Assembly (NCBI GenBank): GCA_030141605.1
Contig: JAQGDQ010000172.1
Coordinates: 381,695 to 445,694, forward strand
Origin: Tubiluchus corallicola
Lineage: Eukaryota > Animalia > Priapulida
Direction: 5' to 3'
Length of the DNA: 64,000 nt
The notes beneath the pieces are model-generated. The model made no database searches. It was not told the origin of the DNA and saw nothing but the letters and a program-made list of their open reading frames with translations. The translations under genes were made by a program, and so were the position numbers. This document shows, piece after piece, positions 5,664 through 18,605 of this stretch (its first letter is position 1; every line of letters starts with the position of its first letter).

Positions 5664-5835
5664 TCATCTGCTATAGCTGCGGCTACGGCTTCGGCTATAC
5701 CATGGTGTTATTGAACGGCTACGACTGCGTGAGTATGATGCTGACGTCCATGACCCATATGGGCTCCAACTGCTCTCATCATCTGAAGGGGTTGGGGGCG
5801 TTTCTCTTCGGTAGGGCACAGGTCTCTTCCTTGCA
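5664..5835 (-). CDS. Srrm234: Terminal exon: second half of eMIC (S-ARKRPVPYRR) plus RS tail, TGA stop
   Basis: Acceptor TTCTAATTCTAG|T GCA AGG AAG AGA CCT GTG CCC TAC; corresponds to ORF 5664..5852. Confidence 0.92.
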
Positions 5836-8800
5836 CTAGAATTAGAAACCAATAACTCTGCATTAACTCACACTACAAAACACAGAACAAATCTGGACTA
5901 AGAGTGTTTTTAAAACTTTATAGTTTAAACTGCAATAACGAAAATATGGCTATAGAGACTCTGACTAGGACTCTACCGATTTTAGATGCGAATGAAATAA
6001 ATAATGAAAAAAATACATCATTATTATGGTCTTCTGTATGTTTTCTTTTTTCTATTAAAATAACAACTTTACTTAAACCCTAAAAGCAAAGCATTAAAAA
6101 AACATCCAGGCTTCTCGACTGCAAACATATAGTCTTCATCATTGGACTGTTTTGTGTTAGAAGCCATGTAGGTTTATATAGGCTAATTGCTTAGAGTAAG
6201 TGTACATATGACTAGAAGCCCATTGATGAGGTGTAAACAATGCAGATACAGCATTTAGACAGAAAGTACAATGGTACTATAAAAATAAAGATAATTGAGA
6301 TTGAGTTACCTTGCATATCGAGACAGGGCGCATTATTGTGTACTGATAGACTTTCTTCCTTTAAATAAGAGATCATACTTCTGCCGCTGAACAAACTCGT
6401 GACTGCAGTCATTTCAGTACTGTCTATGCTAGAGCTAGAAATGACTGTGATCTCTTAATTAAAGAACGTCTGTCAATGTACAGCAACAACCCCTCCTTTA
6501 ATGTTCAAGGTAGTTCAACCATCTTATCTTTGTTTTCATAATACCCCTGTACTTACTCTAAATAGTTGTTATATCTACTTATTTACATACCTACCTCATC
6601 AATTGGCTACTAATTATGCATAAACTTACTGTAAGCAGTTAGGCCTATATAGACCTTCATGTCACACAAAAGAGTCCACTGCCAGCTTTTTGCAGTCGAA
6701 ACTTTTGGACGTTTTTTGTGCTTTGCTTGCTTTTCTTTGAGTGTTTTGCAATGTTGTTACTTTAAAAAAAATATTCATTCACTGTCTGTTTACTGGTTTT
6801 CCTTTTTTACCTGAAACTGATAGACAGCAGTATGTTGAAATGTCTTTGTGTCTTTCAAATCTGTTTACTTGTACACCCAATTTTCATAAGAAACGCAAAC
6901 ATATATATGTGCAATTACATCTAGCAATATCATGAAATCCACATGCAGTTATAGCAACATAGCGACAAACTAAGTTTTACTGATAGTCTGTCTAAATATT
7001 ATCTGTAAACTACAATGTTAGTGTGTTATTGTAGACTAAACTGGCGACATTTGCAGAAATTGCATATAATTATTAGTAGGCTACCATATTGTAAATGACA
7101 GCATATAACTAACCTTAAGTAATAATTTTGAAATGGTAAGTGCACATTGAATAGCACTCAACGGGTTTGCTATTTGTAGTTAAGTGCTATTACAGTATTA
7201 GTCACTTTATTAGTGTTTTAGTCGCGATAAATTAATTTTAGTTATTAATTCTTATTACATATATTTAATTAAAATATTACTGCTCGTATATGCCTCATTG
7301 TATTGCTTGCGTATAGGCTAGGTAAATCTGTAAAAAAAACAATTTTTACGTTGAAAAAATAAGTAATAACTTTTGTTATAACGAGAAGAAAATCAAAATT
7401 TTCCTCATTATATTGTAATCTACAGTTCGTAATAATTTTTATGCAAACCTGGTGATTCTTCTTCTGGATTTGAAAGACGGTGAAACTCTTTTGCGTAGAG
7501 GGCGTCGCTTTCTTGGACTAGTTGAACGACTGCAAGTTGCTGAACGAGATTGCCTGGCCCTAGATGCTGATCTTGACCTTGACATCCTAGCTCGTGACCT
7601 TGACCTTGACGAAGAGTGATGACTACTTATTTGTGACCTGCAAATTCACCAAACCACTGACATTACAATTTTTGCTTTCTGTGTCACCTTTTGTTAAAGA
7701 TGTTTTTTTCTGTGAAATCTGGCACCTGACGATTAAAAAAATTGATAATTTGTGCAGAAGATTTATTAGAGATGTTCATTGGGATAAACTTTTGGAGAGG
7801 TTATAAAAATAAAAATAGCAAGATTTTACTTACTGAAACTTTGACTGCTTTGACATTGAAACTTTGACTCAAAAATAAGAGCATCATTTAGCAGTTAATC
7901 AGCAAAAAGGATGTGAAATGGAGAGGGAAGAAAAATAACAAAAAGTACAGGAGGAAATTTAGAAAGAGAGAGAGAGAAAGAGAGAGAGATGATAATACTG
8001 AATGCTCAAATCATGCCCAATGTGGTCAGAATCAGATGCACAACCTCAATTATAGCAAAACACACAGTATGCTCTAATTTTAAATAACTATTTCATTCGT
8101 ACATTAGAAAAACATTATTAAAACACAGCTTAAATTAGTTAACACAATATTTTTGACGTGGTCGTCATTTTGATTTTAATGAATTCTCATTGTTTTATTT
8201 TTGTAGGAATTGCACTTAGCAATGAAATCACTACTTGTAGTATTTTTTCGACAAGTGACCGTAGGTCAAAGATCTGCCAATCTCCTGTCAACTTATACCA
8301 TTCATTTCACCCTATCGAGGCTTTCCTTTGATACACTAGAAGCTAGCGTCGTTTGATGCTAAAGCATTTGTCTCCCCGAACCCTGCTTTGCCCCCTAGTT
8401 GGGTCACACGACAACCCGTTTTGCTGAAATTTACACCGTTCAATTCGTCTCATTGAAACTTTTCATTTTATCTCCTGCAAGCTATTGTCGATTTACATCT
8501 GAGCCATTTCCGTCCTCACCTCCAAATTTTGGTTTTTGCCCTCTAGCGGAAAGTACTCCAATATCTACGTGCCCATATTCAGCCATGCGCAAGACCTTGA
8601 TCCAATTTAGTCATATGCTAAAAATTGTAGCAATAGCTCAAAAACTTTAGGAGCAGATAGAACCTAGCGAACCTATCCCGTTCGCTCTGCAACGTTTCAC
8701 CCGGCATTGTCGGGTCACTACCTACATAATTCTTTTAACTTAAGGAGTGCGCCCTGTGAGTTTTGCGTCCCTAGCCTTTTACTGCTGCTTGGCAATTTTT

Positions 8801-11800
8801 TAAAACCCTGGGGTGCGCATTTACCCCCAGGTACCTAAATACTTGTGAAAAAAATAAAAAATATTCTGAAATACCTGAAAGGAAGAGTTGAATCACAATC
8901 GTAAAATTGACCTTCGTCTATTGACATTAACCCCTTGATTAGATGTCAAAGGTCAACCTATTGCTGCCCTTCTCCCGTCCAGAACTACCCTCCCTGTGAG
9001 TTTTGCAAATTTAGAATGCAAGGCTAATGAGCGAAATGTTTGTGGTGTGTAAAAGTTAAATAACTGTATGAGATTCAAGAAGATTTTTTTAGCAAAACTT
9101 TAATTATACCTCGAGCGAGATCTTGAGCGACTCCAGGTTTTTGATTTCGATTTTGCTGCTCTCACTGTGTGAGGTGGCGACTGTGATCTTGATACACTCC
9201 TGCTCCGCGGCTGTAGCTTATAGGCAACTGGAAGAGGAGGCGGTGAATTACTCGGTGATTTCGCCTCCTTCATTTCTACTAACGGCCTAGGAGAGATATC
9301 TAGAAGCGGGGATGCCAGAAAGGTAAAGGGAGAATCCCAACCGTTTACCTTTTCGTTTCGAGATGACGTATTTGATAAAGGAGGCGCATTTCTTGCATCT
9401 AAAGGTATTTTTAGTTTGCTTGGTGTGATGGACCGTGTACTTCTTGCTGAAGCTGTTGAAGACCTCGAAGAGTCTGATGCAAATCGAGACCTCATTAACT
9501 GACGTATTTTACTGCTCGAGGTACTGGAAGTAGACCTAGAGGAACGCGACCTTGATCTGGACCTTGACTTTGATCTTGAATTTGATCTTAATATTGGTTT
9601 AAGTTTAGGGCTTGAGCTTAATATTGAACGTGATCTGGAATGCATTCGTGGAGATTTTCTCTTATACTTTGCTTTCTGGACTGTTGCAGTTAAGTTTGTC
9701 AAAGTCTTTCTCTTTTCTCCAGAAACTTGTAAAAGTGGCGAATTACTCTGAAAAATATATTATGTAGTCGTAAATGCTGATACAGACATCAGGAGCTGAT
9801 ACAACAAGGTTTCCAAAACGAAAAGTAACAGAACTTACCAACAAATGCTGTAACCATACCACTATTATACCATACAAAGCCAATAAGTAGGGTCATACCA
9901 AATTATAGCGGAAAAGTTGGAATTATATAAATATAATGACATGTCACAATGATGAAATCCAGATTCATTTTGAGGTATTTCTTCAGCATGCCTCAGAACA
10001 TCAACATAATAAACCTTTCCAGCGATTGATGATGATCGTGAAAGGGTCAACGGCTAAGTGTACCAAACAACTTATTCGTGTACACTTGAAACGCCTCGCA
10101 ACCCATGCTATTGTAACAGTAACAGTTTTAACAGTTACATAGAACCTTACCTAGTTCATTTTTTCTTATTCACAAGCAAGATCCTACTAGTAAGTCACTC
10201 TACTCACAGACTAATGAATAATTAAGTAAAGTCCACATAAAACAACGGAAGTTTACTGAACTGATGTGCTTTACCCCTATGGCCACATGTCACGTGGCGG
10301 TTGTAGTTAAGACCGCTTGTGGTACACTCAACCTTTGACCTACAGCAACTGCGCGTGTGAAAAGGCTTATTTAATTTCTACTGCACTGTTCCTTTTGAAA
10401 CACCCAGTATAATACATAATGAAAATATTCATGTAGCATGTACCTGTCTAGAATTTGAAACGCCACATTTTCCATTTTCAGTCTTGACGTCTTTTTCTAT
10501 TCCATCAAATTAATGTTCAAGTAAGTTTTACATTAACACAGCCTACCGTGAAAAGGTCACGGAGTCGTAACATAATGCTCTATTTAGCAAATTCGCTATC
10601 GTGACTAAGTCATAAAAAGTAGTCGTTCAATGATGCTTTCTATTTCGTTATTGACGTTGATTAAACACACTATTGTGAATTATGGTATAACTTACAGAGT
10701 GCATGATAATTTACAAATTTTCATGAGTTCATCCAAATTAGCCTTGGACTAGATGTTAGACTAGATGTTGGACTAGCATTAGATGTTTAAACAGTAACAA
10801 TATATAGATAATAATAACAACAATAATGCGCTCACTAACTTTTTCAGTTGTCTTTACAGCTAAGTAGGTTTTCTGTTGAAACTCTGAACATTTTTTTTAC
10901 ATTTCTTAACAATGAAAGATTTTTTAAGCGCCATATATTGTATTCGATAAATATCATTACGTACACTATGATACAAAATTTTCGGCAGACATACTTTTGA
11001 CTTTTCCACATTATGAGAATGACTGTGATTCCTGCTTGAAGATTTCCTTTTTCTTTTAGGCTTTTTTCTTTTCAGCAACTGAAAAGCAATACAAAAAAGC
11101 ACATTATATCAGGAGCAGTGGAGTTGCCCAAGTAAATGCAGGCATAACAGTTTTTGTGAAACAGTGGACTGTTTACGTATACTGTAGTATGACTCTTGAA
11201 ATTTGTAACTTTTATTTTTTCTTGTAAAAAATGGCCGTCAAACACTGTCAACCATTTTCTCTCACTTTAGAAATAATTGAGGCATACCTTTCCATTTTCG
11301 TCTCTTTTGCGAAGATGATCACCCTCTCTTCGTCTGCGCAACTTTTTTGGCTTCTCACCTGAACCTTGACCAGTTAAACTGCTGAAACGATCAGAGAATT
11401 GATCTGGATCAGCTAACAATGCTACAAATCGCCTAATCAGTATTCACAGTATACTTGGTTTGGTGTAACACACAACAAATTACACATTTCGTCTCAAGTC
11501 ACCTCATCTCTCAGATCAGCTCACCTCATCTCACGTGCCTTACTTCATTTGACATAAACTGAAATGCTCACTCATTTTACCGTTCTTTTCTCTGTGTACT
11601 CTCACTTCACATTTTCTCCCTTATCTCACATGGCTTCACGCCTTCAATTCCGTACCTCATGATCTGATTTCGCTAGACCCCATTTTTTCTCACGATTTCA
11701 TTTCTCATCTCAACAGATAATCAACGGTTAAATTTAGGAGAAAGACGGCTCTGAAAATTTGGAGTTCAAGATTCGAACTCCGAGCCTTGCGATATCAGGT

Positions 11801-14800
11801 CACAGGTCACACGTTTTATCTAATTGGGTTATCAACCAACATGGCCTGAATTCTCGTACTTATCACGCGCAATAAATCAGAGCCACCTTTTCGTAGTAAA
11901 GAACAGCTAATTAATTAGTAAGGTTCCTTTGGGTCCTTAGCAGGGAACACAAATAAAGTACATACAGCACCAGATTACAGTACTTATATAATGGACAATT
12001 AAATTTAGAAGGAAGAAATTTAATTTGAAATTTATATTATATGTAAATTCCAAATATACATGTAGCTTGACTCTAATAATTTTTTTATTAATGTTTAGTG
12101 AAAAGCCATTGTACTTTTTTAGATAGCCTACCTTTTGCAAATTTTAATTAAACGTCTTTTTTTCCTTTTGTGTTTGTGGTCACCTGCCCTGTATACATTA
12201 AATATCCCCTTGTAAGTGCAGGATTGTAATTGAAAGTTTCAAATAAAACACAGAAACGCACATTTTTAATGAAATCTACTAGATAGTTATTTTACAATAC
12301 AGTACGTAAAGGAAACGTAGCAGAATTTCAGCTCACAGTAGATTTTCAGTGAAGCAAACTGAAAATACATTCACGACAGTGAAATTGATAGAGAAATTAA
12401 AGAGAAGGCATGCATTAATGTAAGTGTGATGTTTGACGGTACTCTTTTCAGAAAGTTGTAGAACAATACCTCTAAATTGAACTGAATTCATAAGCAGCCA
12501 GAAAGTTCGGCTTTTGGCTGGATTTAAATCAGTGCGCTAACTGGTTTTTTTAACAGACTCCATTACAGACACTGTAAACCCACAGCAATACAATGAAATT
12601 AAAAGACCAAAAAACAGATACATATAATTATAGGAAAACTAAAAGGGCATGCAGACAAGAGTGTGATATTTAATTAGTGCAAAAATATGGACTGCCTACT
12701 ACATATTTGAGGCGATTTTTACTTTTTTATACAGCTTAACGTGCAAAAAACATTCTGTCACTTTCAGAGCACAGCAACAAAAATTCTGATTAAAAGCTCT
12801 GATCCTATTATTAATAACAAATGAAATCGATTAGCCGTGGAATAAACACTTTTTCTTCAACGAAAATAAAAAAATCGCTTACTTTCTACATGGAAGATTG
12901 GTTAAGATGTACACCCAAAAACCAATTAAATACGTTCATTTTGTAATACTGACTACTTTTTATAAACATTTCAGACATACAAATCAGCTCTTCCACCTTT
13001 ACTTAGCTTTTATAACAAAAAAACTCTCATGTGCTCAGGGCTGGATTACCCTACAGTCTGGTATAGGCTTCAGCCTAGAGCCCTTCAAGTATGGGGCCCA
13101 TACTTTGCTTTGCTGACTTTAGAAAAGGAGGCCAGGAAATCTGAAAATCCAATTTTAAAGTAGCTTCTCTTATGAGATAAAGAATCTCTGTTTGAGGCCT
13201 TTTATTTGAGACAATGAGCCTCTGTTTGAGACCGTTTATCAGAGATGTTCCTCTCTTTGAAGCCCTTTATTTTAAATAAGGGGCCGCAGCTGTGCAAATG
13301 TTGCTAAAATATATCACAAGTAAAAATATTCGAGACGAGTACGAGCAAATTAGAGAGTAGCTCCGTTTGAAAGGAACCTCATAATTTCATTAGCCTAGGC
13401 CCCAAAAGGTCATGATCTGGCCCTGCACGCGCTACACAAATGTGCTTATTGTAGGCCTATATTATTGTGACGTTTACAATCACAAAATAATTATGATGTA
13501 ATAGGAAATCCACAAAACAGCACCTGCGCAACAAGCTGTCCATTAACTGTAGAATATAATTATGGAAGAAAGAGTTATGTATGCAACAAAATGTTGACTT
13601 TTGAAAACCGTCAAAATATCTCATCAAAGGCCGCAATAAGACTCCATAAATCTTTCCAGCGAAATTTGAATATTACATTCCCCACACTTGATGTCCGAGA
13701 ACTTGTAATTTGGCTGTTAATTCCGAACGCTTTTTGGCGTGCACATATTTGGTATTTAAGAAAGATTTGCGACGAGCAATTCAAAATTTATCTAATTTTT
13801 ATAAAAACACAAAATTCCAAACGCTGTACATCATTAAAAATACAAAAATCATACCTACCACCATACAAAGAATTGTCATCATCTGATGTCGTTTGCGGGC
13901 TAAGGTATAGTAATAAACTGTTATAAAATGAATTATTGCACACCGCTTTAGAATTCCTAATGTCTATGTAATGATATCGGCTGTGTGCATATTTAAAACC
14001 AGTAAACGCAATGTTATGACTCTGTAAAACAACCAGCTTCACCTATTTAACTGTATTTACAGTGTATTTAAAAGAAAAATGCTAAATAATTCAACAAAAA
14101 ATAAGCCAATGTATAGCCACTTTTAAGTGTTTTACACGGATCACACCTGAAACAAATTGATGCAATATGCAGAACATATAATAGTTAAAAAATATTATCT
14201 ATCAGTTATTATACTGTCATGGATACGTTAATCGCAAGCTTACCTTATTTTATATTTTACACGTTTTTTCTTGCGTTTTATTTCTGTAGACCCGTCAACA
14301 TTCTCTGCATTATCACTCGTATTCCTCTGTTTCCTTTTTGATAATGACCTTGACCTGGATGCTGATGTTGACCTTGACCTAGTAATATCATAATTTCATT
14401 ACTTTGTGCGATTGCACTATAACGTTTTTGGGTCATATGTGTTACATTTGTGCTGCTATCGCAGTTTCTTACGTTGTCACTTCCCAAAGTCTCCAACGGG
14501 ACATTGAATGCCTTGCATTAGTTCGATTTTTCCTCCTCCGTCACCCTTTGTAACAATACACTGCGTTAAGTGTAGCTTCCAGTATCTCAAAATCCCAAAA
14601 TTTAATTACCTGGCCTAAGTGTATGATCTTGGAAGCCATCCTATAGTTAGGGCAACCAATATCAATGCAAACACCTTGTGACCAATTGTAGAAAGTGCTA
14701 CAGTGTGGCACCACCTAATCAAATATGTACCATTAGAATTTTCTAAAAGGTCAGCTCCTAAACATCGGCTCTTGTGTATAACTTTGGGTAAAATTGTAAA

Positions 14801-17800
14801 GATAACAAAACGGTAACGGTGTGATACAATAAAAACAACAAGCTGCGATCAACAATATAGCTAACATATTATTTCTGCATATATTTTTCCTCAACTCGTT
14901 ATCTAATGGTAAACTATAGAATGTAGAATATTTATTAGATGCGTGCAGTGGAATCTACTGGGTGTACCAAAAGTCCCAAATTATTTTTAAAAAGCATTTT
15001 AATTTTTCAAGAGAAACCAAATGACAATATAGTTGTTGAGTCTACCAGTCACGAGAATATTGACGGCATCAAAACTGACTTCATAGGTCTATTGTAGCGA
15101 TTTTCACCTATGTGTGTCATGCTCTTTTTTGTATGTAGCCAATGCAGCGAATTAGTACTCTACTCTGTTCTGAGGAAAATAAAAATGTATACTAAACAAG
15201 ACTGAATTAATTTAGCTCCAAATCCATGAGCGCAACGCCATGACCGCGTTTACACCTGACTATACCTTGCCGAGAGTGGGTGACTTATGTCAATACGTGT
15301 AAATTACTACTCTCCATCATTACTAATCAGTGAATCAGTACGTACGGTTCTCTTGACTAATTAACAGTTTACTGTCTCGTAACTAACGACGAGTTTAGTT
15401 ACTACAGTTTTAGAGTCATTCATTGCTATGTATTGAAATCCGCCATCACGACGGCGTTTGTGACTTGACTGTGCTTTGTCAGATGTCACTGGCCCAGCCC
15501 TTTTTAATTACTGAGTACTAGTTTTTCACGAGATCATTGCCGATTAGCTCAGAAGAAACTTGAAAACTAAATTAATGAGGGACTTGTGAGAAACACCCTG
15601 TACTGATTTTGAAATGAGCATACCTGGAGCGCTTAAGTTTGGCTTGAATGTGCTGTTTTTGGGTGTCTGATTTATCATCGGTGTCATCATATTCATCGTC
15701 ATCCTTGATTTTAAGTTTTGTCGCTGCTGGGGAACACGACAAGTTTCTATGCTTTGACCCTAACCTACAGATTTATTTAAAAACTTTAACCATGTCTGGA
15801 TTATTTATTGTATTAATACAATAACGCATTTACAGATATCTTACAGATCGAGTTGTTTTTGTTTGAGAAATAATCAAAAGATATTAATGCATAAAGCAGA
15901 ATATTAAATTAAATATTCATGCAATTACTGTAAAGACAGAGGGTTATTAATTCTCAACAGAACAGAGATATTAATAATAAAAACACTAACGGGTATAGCA
16001 TTTTAAGTGGGTACCAAAGAAAAAAGTTACTACCACATCCAACAATTGAAATTACACCGTTTCAACTATTTCCAGAATTTTTAGCGAAGAAAACTTTAAG
16101 AATTTTTTCTGAAAACGTTTTTCAAACACCCTGTTAACTACCAACTTACCCTAGATTTGAATCCAGAACGAGCAAAGAATTAACAAGGGGAAATACTTAT
16201 TAGAAATATATTGTCATCACAAAAACTATTGTACGAAATTTTATACAAAATGACATATATCTGTGGTAAAAATTTTAGTTAACACAAATTTAATACACAT
16301 GATTTACGACACTGATATGTTATATGTTGCGTATTTTTGTACAGTAATACTTATTTTTAGAATAAAAGAATTCATCGCAATTTACAACAAAATAGTGAGC
16401 TATTTCAGAGCTAGATAAATAACATAAGAAACTAAATGTACGTGAGCTTAGCCCTGTTGGAAAAAACTAGCAGGGATATTTACAGATAAGCTGATTTTTG
16501 TTCTTTGCATTGACTATTAAAGGAGAAATAAAATTAGACCTGCTATTAAGCCTGCCCATGCATTTATTGAATTTTATTACTGCGTTTTATTTATTGAATC
16601 GAAAAGCATATTATTGAAACTAGCCGAATAAGCGGTAAGCCCAAACAAAATTTTGTCTTTTTGAAAAATACAACCATAACTATATATCTGTGCAACAGAC
16701 TGCTCATGCAACAGGCTTGAGCAGTCTCGCAGTGTTAAACTAAAATGTCAAATATCAGCTATTACGACATTGCGTTGATTTAAAAGCTATGTGCTGATTT
16801 TTTAACTAATAAGTTTATTTTCAATCCACTTAACAAAATTATATTAAGTTTGAATACCTTATCGTTTTGCTTGCTTCGGTTTCAATTTCACTCAATTTTT
16901 CTGAAGGTCTAATCTTTCTGAAATGTTCCATATAGATGCTAGTAATACTCATACATACATTTTTATACTTACATAGAATTTTAGCTTAAGGGCAAAAAAC
17001 TATGTGCCTTCTTTTATCCCCATTTACAATTATTTATAATTTTCAGTTTAAATAGTTTATTCGATGTCAGTAATAGTAAATTAAACTAGGAATCAGTAAA
17101 TTATATTTAAACGTTGAGGCGATTCAGACGGTCAGAAAGTGTTTTTTGAAAACAAGCATGTTGCCCTATACATTTTTCATAGTTCTTCCAGTCTTTAAAA
17201 TATTGTAAGTGTAACAAAGATAAACATATTAAACAACAAACAATAAATATAAGAAACCCTAGTTGTTTTGTACAGAGGCTTGTAAACTGACTATAGTTAT
17301 ACTTACAGGCCTACACATTTTGAAATGTTAATAACAGTTTTTTTCACATTTAGTTAGATAAAAAATTGATAAAAATATGCAGAACGTGCCATTAACATTG
17401 AACAACAAAATTAATTATGGCTTTTCAGTTAAACAAATTGCTGTTGTTTTTCAATCATATTTTTGTAATAATATTTTATTATGTTGGCTACCTTTTAGCA
17501 TCTTTGACCAAGTGATGATGCATACGGCGTTTTTTCTCTTGTTTGTTTATATCTTCTAGTGACTTCCTGTAAATTAACGATGTAATCATATAACTGCAGC
17601 GACAAGACTATTACTCACAAATTTCCTGGTAAAGAAATGTCAAAGAAAATAATTGTTGAATTTCTTGTAATGTTGAACATCTATTCTTAACTGGTAGAAG
17701 CAAAGGTTTCATTCAATTTTTCTAGCAACTTTTTATTATCGAAGAAAATTTTTTATAAAATACAGTGATAAAGTTACTCATAAAGTTTGACAAAACTTGT

Positions 17801-18605
17801 TTCATAACTCGTTATCTAGTCAAAGGTCTGCGAAAACGTTCATGTCTGATACATAAATTGTAAGTTTTTTAAACCATTCTAGATAATATTCTCATTTGTC
17901 TGGCTTTACAAAATTAAAAAATTAATGAAACTATTGAGCCGTTCTAGCCACATTTTAACTAATAATAATAATGATGATAATAATTTTTATTTGAAGTCGG
18001 CTTTTGTGTGAACAATTAACCTGAGCTCAAGGAGCTATTATCGCGCATTTTTAACCTAAACACCACGCGCCAGGCGAGGCAACAGCAGGTACCATTTTTG
18101 AAGTCTTTGACCGGCCGCTGTATCGAACTCACAACCTCCCAGACGCAAAGCAGACGACGCGTTACCAATAAGCTAAACCGACTCGTCTAGTTCAGAGAAG
18201 TGTTATAAGGCATAAAATACGCTTTTAACTACTATAAATGCAAAAAAAACATTTCAGCAAATCAAGTTTTTAATGTACTCACTTTAGCAAGTTTTCCGTG
18301 GAAATAGGCCTACTTTTCTTTCTTTTGTCTTTAATGAGAGGTTTTGCATAATCTTTTTGATAAATTCTGGAAGGAAAAAACATAAGAATAACTTTCATTT
18401 AACAGTGACTGATTACAGAAAGCCACCATTGCAGAAAAAATACTTTTAACGTTGGAGGGCTTAATCACAAATTTATATTGTTAAAACATTTAATAAATTT
18501 TTGTAATGAACAAATTCTTATAACTTACATCGTGATCTCATCACTGCTAGCTTTAAGGTTATCTGTTGCTCCTACAGAGGAATTTCTTCTAGTTGGGTTG
18601 TCCAT
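5664..18605 (-). CDS. Srrm234: SRRM3/SRRM4-like (Srrm2/3/4 family) RS-rich splicing factor with C-terminal eMIC domain; spliced CDS join(18605-18529,15764-15624,14378-14244,11381-11288,11078-10995,9747-9110,7637-7449,5835-5664), 1530 nt, ~509 aa
   Basis: Eight exons with GT-AG boundaries and compatible phases (2,2,2,0,0,2,2) give one continuous ORF from MDNPTRRNSS to SRSRSYSR*. The last junction reconstitutes RRRIT-S-ARKRPVPY, matching the SRRM3/4 eMIC core (RRITSARKRPIPYY). RS repeats throughout. Start codon and 5' exons are less certain. Confidence 0.88.
6115..6699. mobile_element. ~585-bp imperfect foldback palindrome (old MITE-like element) in the intron that splits eMIC
   Basis: Arms ~6115-6378 and ~6447-6699 are reverse complements (tcgactgcaaa/tttgcagtcga; ttgatgaggt/acctcatcaa; ctttaaataagagatca/tgatctcttaattaaag). 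Confidence 0.8.
7449..7637 (-). CDS. Srrm234: Penultimate exon (189 nt, phase 2-2): RS repeats and first half of eMIC (RKRVSPSFKSRRRIT)
   Basis: AATTTGCAG|G TCA CAA ... ATC ACC AG|GTTTGC. An in-frame TGA just upstream fixes the acceptor. Confidence 0.9.
7834..7867 (-). other. Candidate frame-shifting (poison) microexon, 5-34 nt depending on the AG used
   Basis: ~120-nt UC/pyrimidine tract, three TGC motifs, first AG at 7869-7868, TCA|GTAAGT donor. Confidence 0.55.
9110..9747 (-). CDS. Srrm234: Large RS/SP-rich exon (638 nt, phase 0-2)
   Basis: TTTTTCAG|AGT AAT TCG...; contains the 200-aa ORF 9100..9702. Donor TCGAG|GTATAA is in phase 2, matching the next exon. Confidence 0.88.
10995..11078 (-). 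CDS. Srrm234: Basic exon LLKRKKPKRKRKSSSRNHSHSHNVEKSK (84 nt, phase 0-0; NLS-like)
   Basis: TTGCTTTTCAG| acceptor, AAA|GTATGT donor, open frame. Confidence 0.82.
11288..11381 (-). CDS. Srrm234: Exon SLTGQGSGEKPKKLRRRREGDHLRKRDENGK (94 nt, phase 2-0; NAGNAG acceptor)
   Basis: TCGTTTCAG|CAG acceptor, AAG|GTATGC donor, open frame. Confidence 0.8.
11755..11850 (-). mobile_element. Degenerate tRNA-derived SINE head
   Basis: B-box-like GGAGTTCGAATCTTG on the minus strand with a decayed A-box region. Confidence 0.35.
13036..13425 (+). mobile_element. hAT-type MITE
   Basis: TIRs CAGGGCTGGATTA / TGATCTGGCCCTG. Flanking 8-mers CATGTGCT / CACGCGCT look like a TSD with CpG decay. An inverted second copy lies at ~30371-30825. 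Confidence 0.8.
14244..14378 (-). CDS. Srrm234: Exon SRSTSASRSRSLSKRKQ...KRKKKRVKYKI (135 nt, phase 2-2)
   Basis: Donor AAG|GTAAGC. The acceptor TTACTAG| is weak but is bounded by an in-frame upstream TGA. RS content. Confidence 0.78.
14958..15600. mobile_element. Tc1/mariner-type non-autonomous element
   Basis: TA-CTGGGTGTACCAAAAGTCCC ... GGGACTTGTGAGAAACACCCTG-TA: imperfect TIRs with a TA TSD. Confidence 0.65.
15624..15764 (-). CDS. Srrm234: Exon LGSKHRNLSCSP...DDDEYDDTDD...KLKRS (141 nt, phase 2-2)
   Basis: TCTGTAG| acceptor, CAG|GTATGC donor, open frame with an acidic patch. Confidence 0.78.
16150..16150 (-). other. Candidate 1-nt microexon (TAG|G|GTAAGT)
   Basis: CTAAT/TTAAT branch-like motifs, pyrimidine tract containing TGC, then TAG-G-GTAAGT. 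Confidence 0.4.
17961..18185 (-). mobile_element. tRNA-derived SINE with Meta-domain-like core
   Basis: tRNA-like head (TAGCTTATTGGTAA...GAGTTCGATAC), core AAAGACTTCAAAAATGGTACCTGCTGTTGCCTCGCCTGGCGC, (TTA/TCA)n tail. Confidence 0.75.

Follow-up and report, generated by a model that had tools for sequence, protein, structure and literature searches.

In an AT-rich stretch of 64,000 nucleotides of Tubiluchus corallicola DNA (the window), the minus strand carries a single G between a TAG and a GTAAGT donor, within an intron of a gene resembling Srrm3/4. This arrangement raises the question of whether the base is spliced as an exon of one nucleotide, which the initial annotation had proposed as a frame-switching poison exon, or whether the donor closes a longer exon, borders a retained intron or is a chance motif.

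The transcript data were assembled contigs from two runs, X1 and X2. X1 is DNA-like and comes from the same species, while X2 (13.2 Mb) is RNA-like judging by its spliced joints, its RNA status being presumed, and comes from a relative about 12% diverged in coding sequence. X2 records have a mean length of about 188 nt, and 30 of them aligned to the window; X1 and X2 both leave out 16178-16480, and X2 also leaves out the exon 15764-15624, gaps that count neither for nor against any reading. A 12-exon model on the minus strand runs from an ATG at 18605 to a stop at 5666-5664 and encodes 597 amino acids rich in Arg and Ser, with a long Arg/Ser-rich body ahead of a C-terminal domain; exons beyond 15764 were placed by splice signals and frame only, save for X2 cover of 9108-9423. 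The exons that bear on the site and on the identity of the gene are these:

18606-18529, minus strand: coding exon with the ATG at 18605; joints in one X2 contig, open frame
18366-18283, minus strand: coding exon, 84 nt; X2 contig joints, open frame
17566-17492, minus strand: coding exon, 75 nt; X2 contig joints, open frame
16858-16917, minus strand: true upstream neighbour exon, 60 nt; splice signals, open frame, X2 contig extending to about 16916
15624-15764, minus strand: predicted downstream exon, 141 nt, with a shifted-frame stop TAG at 15749-15747; outside X2 cover
7449-7637, minus strand: predicted exon, the end of which encodes the first part of an SRRM_C/eMIC-like domain; weak Pfam match, Atlas SRRM4 cluster at 0.79
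5664-5835, minus strand: predicted last coding exon, with the remainder of the eMIC-like domain and the stop; Atlas SRRM4 cluster at 0.83

The host is likely to be a Srrm3/4-like gene of the eMIC type, although each line of support for this predicted protein is weak alone. The domain is split by an intron, and for both of its exons, taken separately, an SRRM4/PF15230 cluster was the top named Atlas match, at scores (0.79 and 0.83) that count at lead level only. Pfam aligned the first part of the domain to positions 31-55 of the 67 in PF15230 (10.5 bits, E=1, below the cutoff of 27), which was the sole family match for that peptide and the one relevant weak match in five queries. None of seven longer single-exon queries matched a Pfam family, four single N-terminal exons (24-46 aa) gave no Pfam match, to the cwf21 domain or any other, and sequence searches with the predicted protein returned no match. 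The C-terminal domain of the model also agrees with what we take to be the vertebrate eMIC motif.

The spliced contigs correct the surroundings of the site. In one X2 contig, 18541 is connected to 18366 across the expected 12 letters and 18282 is joined to 17565 with canonical ends; the contig then runs to about 16916. The initial annotation had joined 18529 straight to 15764; as the main form this junction is ruled out by the X2 joints, since three exons intervene (18366-18283, 17566-17492 and 16917-16858), and the junction probes designed on 18529 would fail because the real upstream edge is 16858. All three intervening exons are multiples of three, so that phase is unchanged, and the early stop predicted for inclusion of the G holds at 15749-15747, falling at codon 105 (104 amino acids made) instead of codon 32.

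The motif at the centre of the question was read correctly at every base, on the minus strand from 16205 to 16144, which is the sense strand of the Srrm3/4-like gene. Its parts are as follows:

16205-16199, minus strand: branch-like motif
16164-16205, minus strand: branch-like motif with a set-back pyrimidine tract and TGC (TGC at 16174-16172)
16151-16153, minus strand: TAG, the acceptor for the one-nucleotide option, behind an AG-free zone of 43 nt
16150, minus strand: G, the candidate one-nucleotide exon and also the final base of all longer candidate exons
16144-16149, minus strand: GTAAGT, a consensus 5' splice site that is likely in use, judging by its sequence and by an X2 contig that starts at 16177 as modelled

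The TAG is preceded by a pyrimidine fraction of 0.40 at -5 to -14 and 0.75 at -15 to -34, with TGC at -24. The cis features of an eMIC-dependent microexon are present at the site, in the form of a strong 5' splice site (GTAAGT, 16149-16144), a set-back tract, and a UGC between branch point and AG. The sequence rules out a zero-length, recursive splice site at 16150, since one base separates AG from GT. An origin of the stretch in a repeat is likewise ruled out: its other self-matches in the window are no longer than 15-34 nt, and the known repeats there have depths of hundreds to thousands, unlike the site stretch. Exact-match scans of metagenome contigs gave no matches.

In number, the bare core is unremarkable and inside the chance range. 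YAGNGTRAGT occurs four times in the window against 1.66 expected (four or more in 7 of 100 shuffles), and AGNGTRAG 15 times against 11.5 (a count reached in 21 of 100 shuffles). The TGC, the set-back pyrimidine tract and the long AG-free zone, however, come together at just one of the four YAGNGTRAGT sites, 16150. This full layout was defined, with thresholds fixed post hoc, as the core with a TGC, a pyrimidine fraction of 70% or more at -15 to -34 and a stretch of 30 nt or more free of AG; order-4 Markov sequence totalling 30 Mb contained five cases, or 0.02 per window and 0.002 per gene length.

The layout is the main argument for the reading in which the TAG is used and the single G is included. 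The donor would then remove the 385-nt downstream intron first, joining the G to the 141-nt exon, and the upstream intron would be removed afterwards at the set-back tract, possibly with eMIC protein bound at the UGC. A set-back tract, TGC at -24, an AG-free zone of 43 nt and a consensus donor together reproduce the layout of SRRM3/4 targets (10.1101/2024.09.17.613571, available part), and the chance of about 0.002 per gene length, given its post hoc thresholds, points the same way; spliceosomal exons of one nucleotide do exist in plants (PMC8831610, available part). Against this, the response to SRRM4 falls as exons shorten, in tests that went down to 6 nt (10.1101/2024.09.17.613571, available part), and no alternative one-nucleotide nuclear animal exon stood out in literature listings. 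YAGN precedes 2.5% of donors by chance (1,479 simulated donors), and the gene has two further YAGNGTRAGT sites on its sense strand, which indicates that the core arises easily. Nor does frame logic lend the one-base exon any support, as the frame is open without the G and broken with it. We regard this reading as unlikely.

The same donor can be paired with other acceptors, which would give exons of ordinary size:

16150-16260, minus strand: candidate poison exon, 111 nt, with CAG, a T-rich tract, ACTAA about 18 nt upstream and an in-frame stop; read from the sequence, no RNA joint
16150-16195, minus strand: candidate exon, 46 nt, acceptor edge 16195; early stop
16150-16225, minus strand: candidate exon, 76 nt, acceptor edge 16225; early stop
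16150-16410, minus strand: candidate exon, 261 nt, acceptor edge 16410; early stop

The 46-nt exon (AAG at 16198-16196) had been named in the initial annotation, and is present and frame-shifting as described there; the acceptors of the 76-, 111- and 261-nt exons are additional. An acceptor matrix trained on only 13 sites does not separate the options (1.1 for 16260, 0.2 for 16150 and a top score of 5.9 for 16410), and we favour the 111-nt CAG exon because it has a T-rich tract with a branch-like motif close by. The choice matters little for the outcome. When every AG between 16857 and 16150 was paired with the donor at 16149, 33 of 33 gave a stop by residue 99-152 of the 597 modelled, far ahead of the eMIC-like domain and with seven modelled junctions following exon 15764, so that the functional result is independent of the acceptor used. 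Read-through into the intron likewise stops early, at 102-128 amino acids.

Further evidence comes from the X2 relative, in which one contig lies across the donor:

15912-16177, minus strand: intron stretch inside one X2 contig (267 nt); spans the donor into the intron, no loose end

This contig differs from the window by 18 substitutions and three gaps. Divergence is 6.8% (18 of 266) over the intron at 15912-16177 and 12.3% (60 of 488) over the four listed coding pieces (p=0.017, one relative), and the same contrast gives p=0.066 when gaps are counted. The 15 listed substitutions and all three gaps fall within 15946-16102, leaving none in the 44 nt from 16103 to 16146 (about p=0.013 if changes were evenly spread, a post hoc figure). 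Three substitutions near the ends of this contig are unlisted and might fall in the TAG or the TGC. X2 contig depths are 71.1 on the intron and 50.9, 35 and 32.5 on exons, values that we do not take as a ranking of abundance.

An unspliced contig running across the donor into the intron is the sole direct RNA observation here, and it suits a reading in which the donor is rarely used and the conserved hairpin region (described below) favours intron retention or intronic 3'-end formation at the AATAAA signals at 15809 and 15777, yielding a short or nuclear-held transcript that lacks the eMIC. The downstream acceptor at 15765 is indeed weak (pyrimidine fraction 0.40, with the lowest leave-one-out score, -1.2), and read-through ends early too, in an intron that holds two AATAAA signals. 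On the other hand AATAAA is frequent in AT-rich DNA, the contigs give no transcript end, and the start of the contig at 16177 would have to be a chance polymorphism; we think it improbable that retention or 3'-end formation is the whole account.

That start deserves attention. Logan builds its contigs as 31-mer graphs and reports those longer than 150 bp (PMC12424806, available part). Neither the X1 nor the X2 contigs show a joint at 16150 or at one of the candidate acceptors, but the expected junction contigs measure 60-143 nt, below the reporting size, which makes a joint at 16150 invisible in them, and a one-base bubble was likely collapsed by the assembler; the extra-G junction is thus absent from contigs that cannot reveal it. 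Position 16177, by contrast, is the exact 31-mer graph break expected if the donor at 16149 is spliced to 15764. We modelled ten isoform mixes, of which four predict a break at 16177: those with the 46-, 76- and 111-nt exons together with read-through, and that with the downstream-first intermediate of the one-nucleotide exon. All four have the donor at 16149 in use and genomic sequence still attached upstream, whereas mature one-nucleotide inclusion alone would break at 16885 and the upstream-first intermediate at 16152, which is not the break observed. The start at 16177 probably means, then, that splicing from the donor to 15764 takes place with 29 nt or more of genomic sequence remaining attached upstream. 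For the single-G exon the downstream-first order is in keeping with 58% of SRRM4-dependent microexons, which splice downstream first (PMC10250204, available part). The evidence is one contig from one run; a break at one given base has a chance of about 1 in 150-200, as estimated from the mean X2 record length, and the same break would also follow from a polymorphism at either 16178 or 16147.

The donor also lies within a predicted fold:

16129-16188, minus strand: predicted hairpin, 60 nt, in which the tract and TGC pair with a stretch that holds the TAG, the G and the donor plus the 20 intron bases that follow

Over 16188-16129 the fold has an energy of -21.4 kcal/mol and a z of -3.44 (1 of 200 shuffles), with borders chosen after the fold had been seen. 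Most of its stem pairs stand at a probability of 0.8-1.0 in a 500-nt context. More stable folds occur in the gene in 27 of 2,574 windows of 75 nt and in 8 of 850 GC-matched windows. Its outer 3' arm lies inside the stretch unchanged in the X2 relative. The partner of a purine-rich donor side would presumably be pyrimidine-rich regardless. An Rfam scan of 15700-16900 gave two matches only (E of 1.1 and 4), on the opposite strand and far under the gathering scores, and no snoRNA or miRNA.

Two further structures lie nearby. At 16700-16780 on the minus strand, in the same intron, a second stable hairpin (about -24 kcal/mol per 75 nt) may be the remnant of an inverted repeat. The weak acceptor at 15765 lies 40-60 nt downstream of a perfect 20-nt palindrome (15805-15824) that overlaps an AATAAA; the wider region around the palindrome folds in the ordinary way (z -0.46).

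Might the site be a functionless chance motif, with the X2 contig an ordinary pre-mRNA of a slowly evolving stretch? Core counts are within chance, about 2% of windows would carry the full layout by chance in a scan that was large, and the positive evidence consists of one contig and a predicted fold. For chance alone, however, low divergence, 44 unchanged nucleotides, a break at the predicted base and a hairpin would all have to coincide here, in a stretch that is not a repeat and has no long self-match in the window, and we hold this to be quite improbable.

The site is likely a switch in the gene of a splicing regulator, acting through a poison exon or through retention, and the exon closed by the donor at 16149 is likely of ordinary size, with 111 nt as first choice, rather than one base. 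The reading we prefer, at a probability that we judge to be roughly 0.45, is that of a hairpin-gated alternative donor that closes an ordinary poison exon, with the adjoining intron often retained, and that acts as an off-switch. The hairpin would hold the donor mostly shut, so that the exon is skipped and full protein made, or, with the donor still shut, part of the intron might be kept, giving a message that is dead or detained. Once the donor opens, the intron 16149-15765 (385 nt) would be removed, an upstream AG would complete the stop-containing exon, and the message would be predicted to undergo nonsense-mediated decay, with the net effect of limiting eMIC protein. The 16177 break, the lower divergence of the intron, the z of the hairpin and the 33 of 33 early stops are all in favour of this poison exon, and three of the four mixes that predict 16177 involve the longer exons; the downstream-first one-nucleotide intermediate, however, predicts that break equally well. 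The poison-exon reading has to treat the microexon-like layout at 16151 as partly coincidental. Of the original claim of a poison exon, what stands is that any use of the donor stops the frame, that the donor is probably used and that its surroundings are conserved; the one-nucleotide exon itself was not seen.

A bolder proposal joins hairpin and single G. The eMIC protein would open the hairpin in its own pre-mRNA and promote inclusion of the G by downstream-first splicing, leading to frameshift and decay, and so would form a negative-feedback sensor beside a 7-nt frameshifting candidate two exons upstream. This we find the most doubtful of the readings. If a one-base, eMIC-driven exon were true, it would lower the size limit of regulated exons in animals to one nucleotide and would amount to direct self-feedback of a microexon regulator.

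Genes for SR proteins and spliceosome components contain poison exons that introduce a premature stop when included (10.64898/2026.09.14.751627, available part). The candidate here resembles them as a conserved non-coding element in a splicing-factor gene whose inclusion would give a premature stop, but here conservation comes from one relative, and self-regulation and nonsense-mediated decay are predictions. A closer parallel is Drosophila Srrm234, where a terminal or poison exon controls the gene: the gene is of the same kind, and an optional stop-bearing exon blocks production of the eMIC domain (10.1101/2021.02.24.432780; PMC8797185, available parts). The fly exon differs in being large, at the 3' end and controlled by Elav/Fne, whereas the element described here follows codon 99 of about 597 (10.1101/2021.02.24.432780, available part). 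SRRM3/4-dependent neural microexons share with the site a strong donor, a set-back tract and a UGC between branch point and AG (10.1101/2024.09.17.613571; PMC10250204, available parts), yet in the material available they mostly preserve frame in mammals and were tested down to 6 nt, while the candidate is 1 nt and frameshifting. The one-nucleotide exons of plant APC11 and VPS55 (PMC8831610) and of Fusarium CYP621A (PMC12940212) likewise place one base between AG and GT and are missed by aligners, but there, as far as the available parts of both sources go, the base is required for full protein.

In flies, misexpression of the eMIC harms tissue (10.1101/2021.02.24.432780, available part), so that its dose must be tightly limited. 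The control described for the eMIC in non-vertebrates, in the portions of the literature available, acts at the 3' end of the gene; if an invertebrate Srrm gene also carried a conserved off-switch in its 5' part, control would act at two levels. A literature search, with the 2019 paper defining the eMIC and most subscription journals beyond its reach, returned no regulated one-nucleotide animal exon and no self-regulation of Srrm by a microexon, and the available parts of PMC13281805 and PMC8378409 hold nothing on self-regulation or one-nucleotide exons.

Other features of the gene were observed along its length. At 20570-20457 and 19743-19676 (minus strand) lie two probable 5' exons, each with a good donor or acceptor; the upstream ATGs in them are out of frame with the ATG at 18605 and possibly begin upstream open reading frames. 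The 7-nt candidate exon mentioned above, at 17625-17619 (minus strand), has a strong tract and a GTGAGT donor but no TGC in the 45 nt upstream; its inclusion would bring a stop after 79 amino acids, and it is skipped in one X2 contig. High-copy repeats lie at 18040-18200, 10050-10360, 13160-13400 and about 22700 (X1 depth of hundreds to thousands), the first of them resembling a tRNA-derived SINE. At 5875-5836 (minus strand), the acceptor through which the eMIC-like domain is completed faces a competing AG (5874-5873), which lies 37 nt upstream and has a comparable tract. The sequence at this AG can also be read as AG-T-GTGAGT, yet the downstream intron would then be just 36 nt; use of this AG would stop the protein at 543 amino acids, inside the domain, a possible on/off switch of the eMIC by alternative 3' splice site choice.
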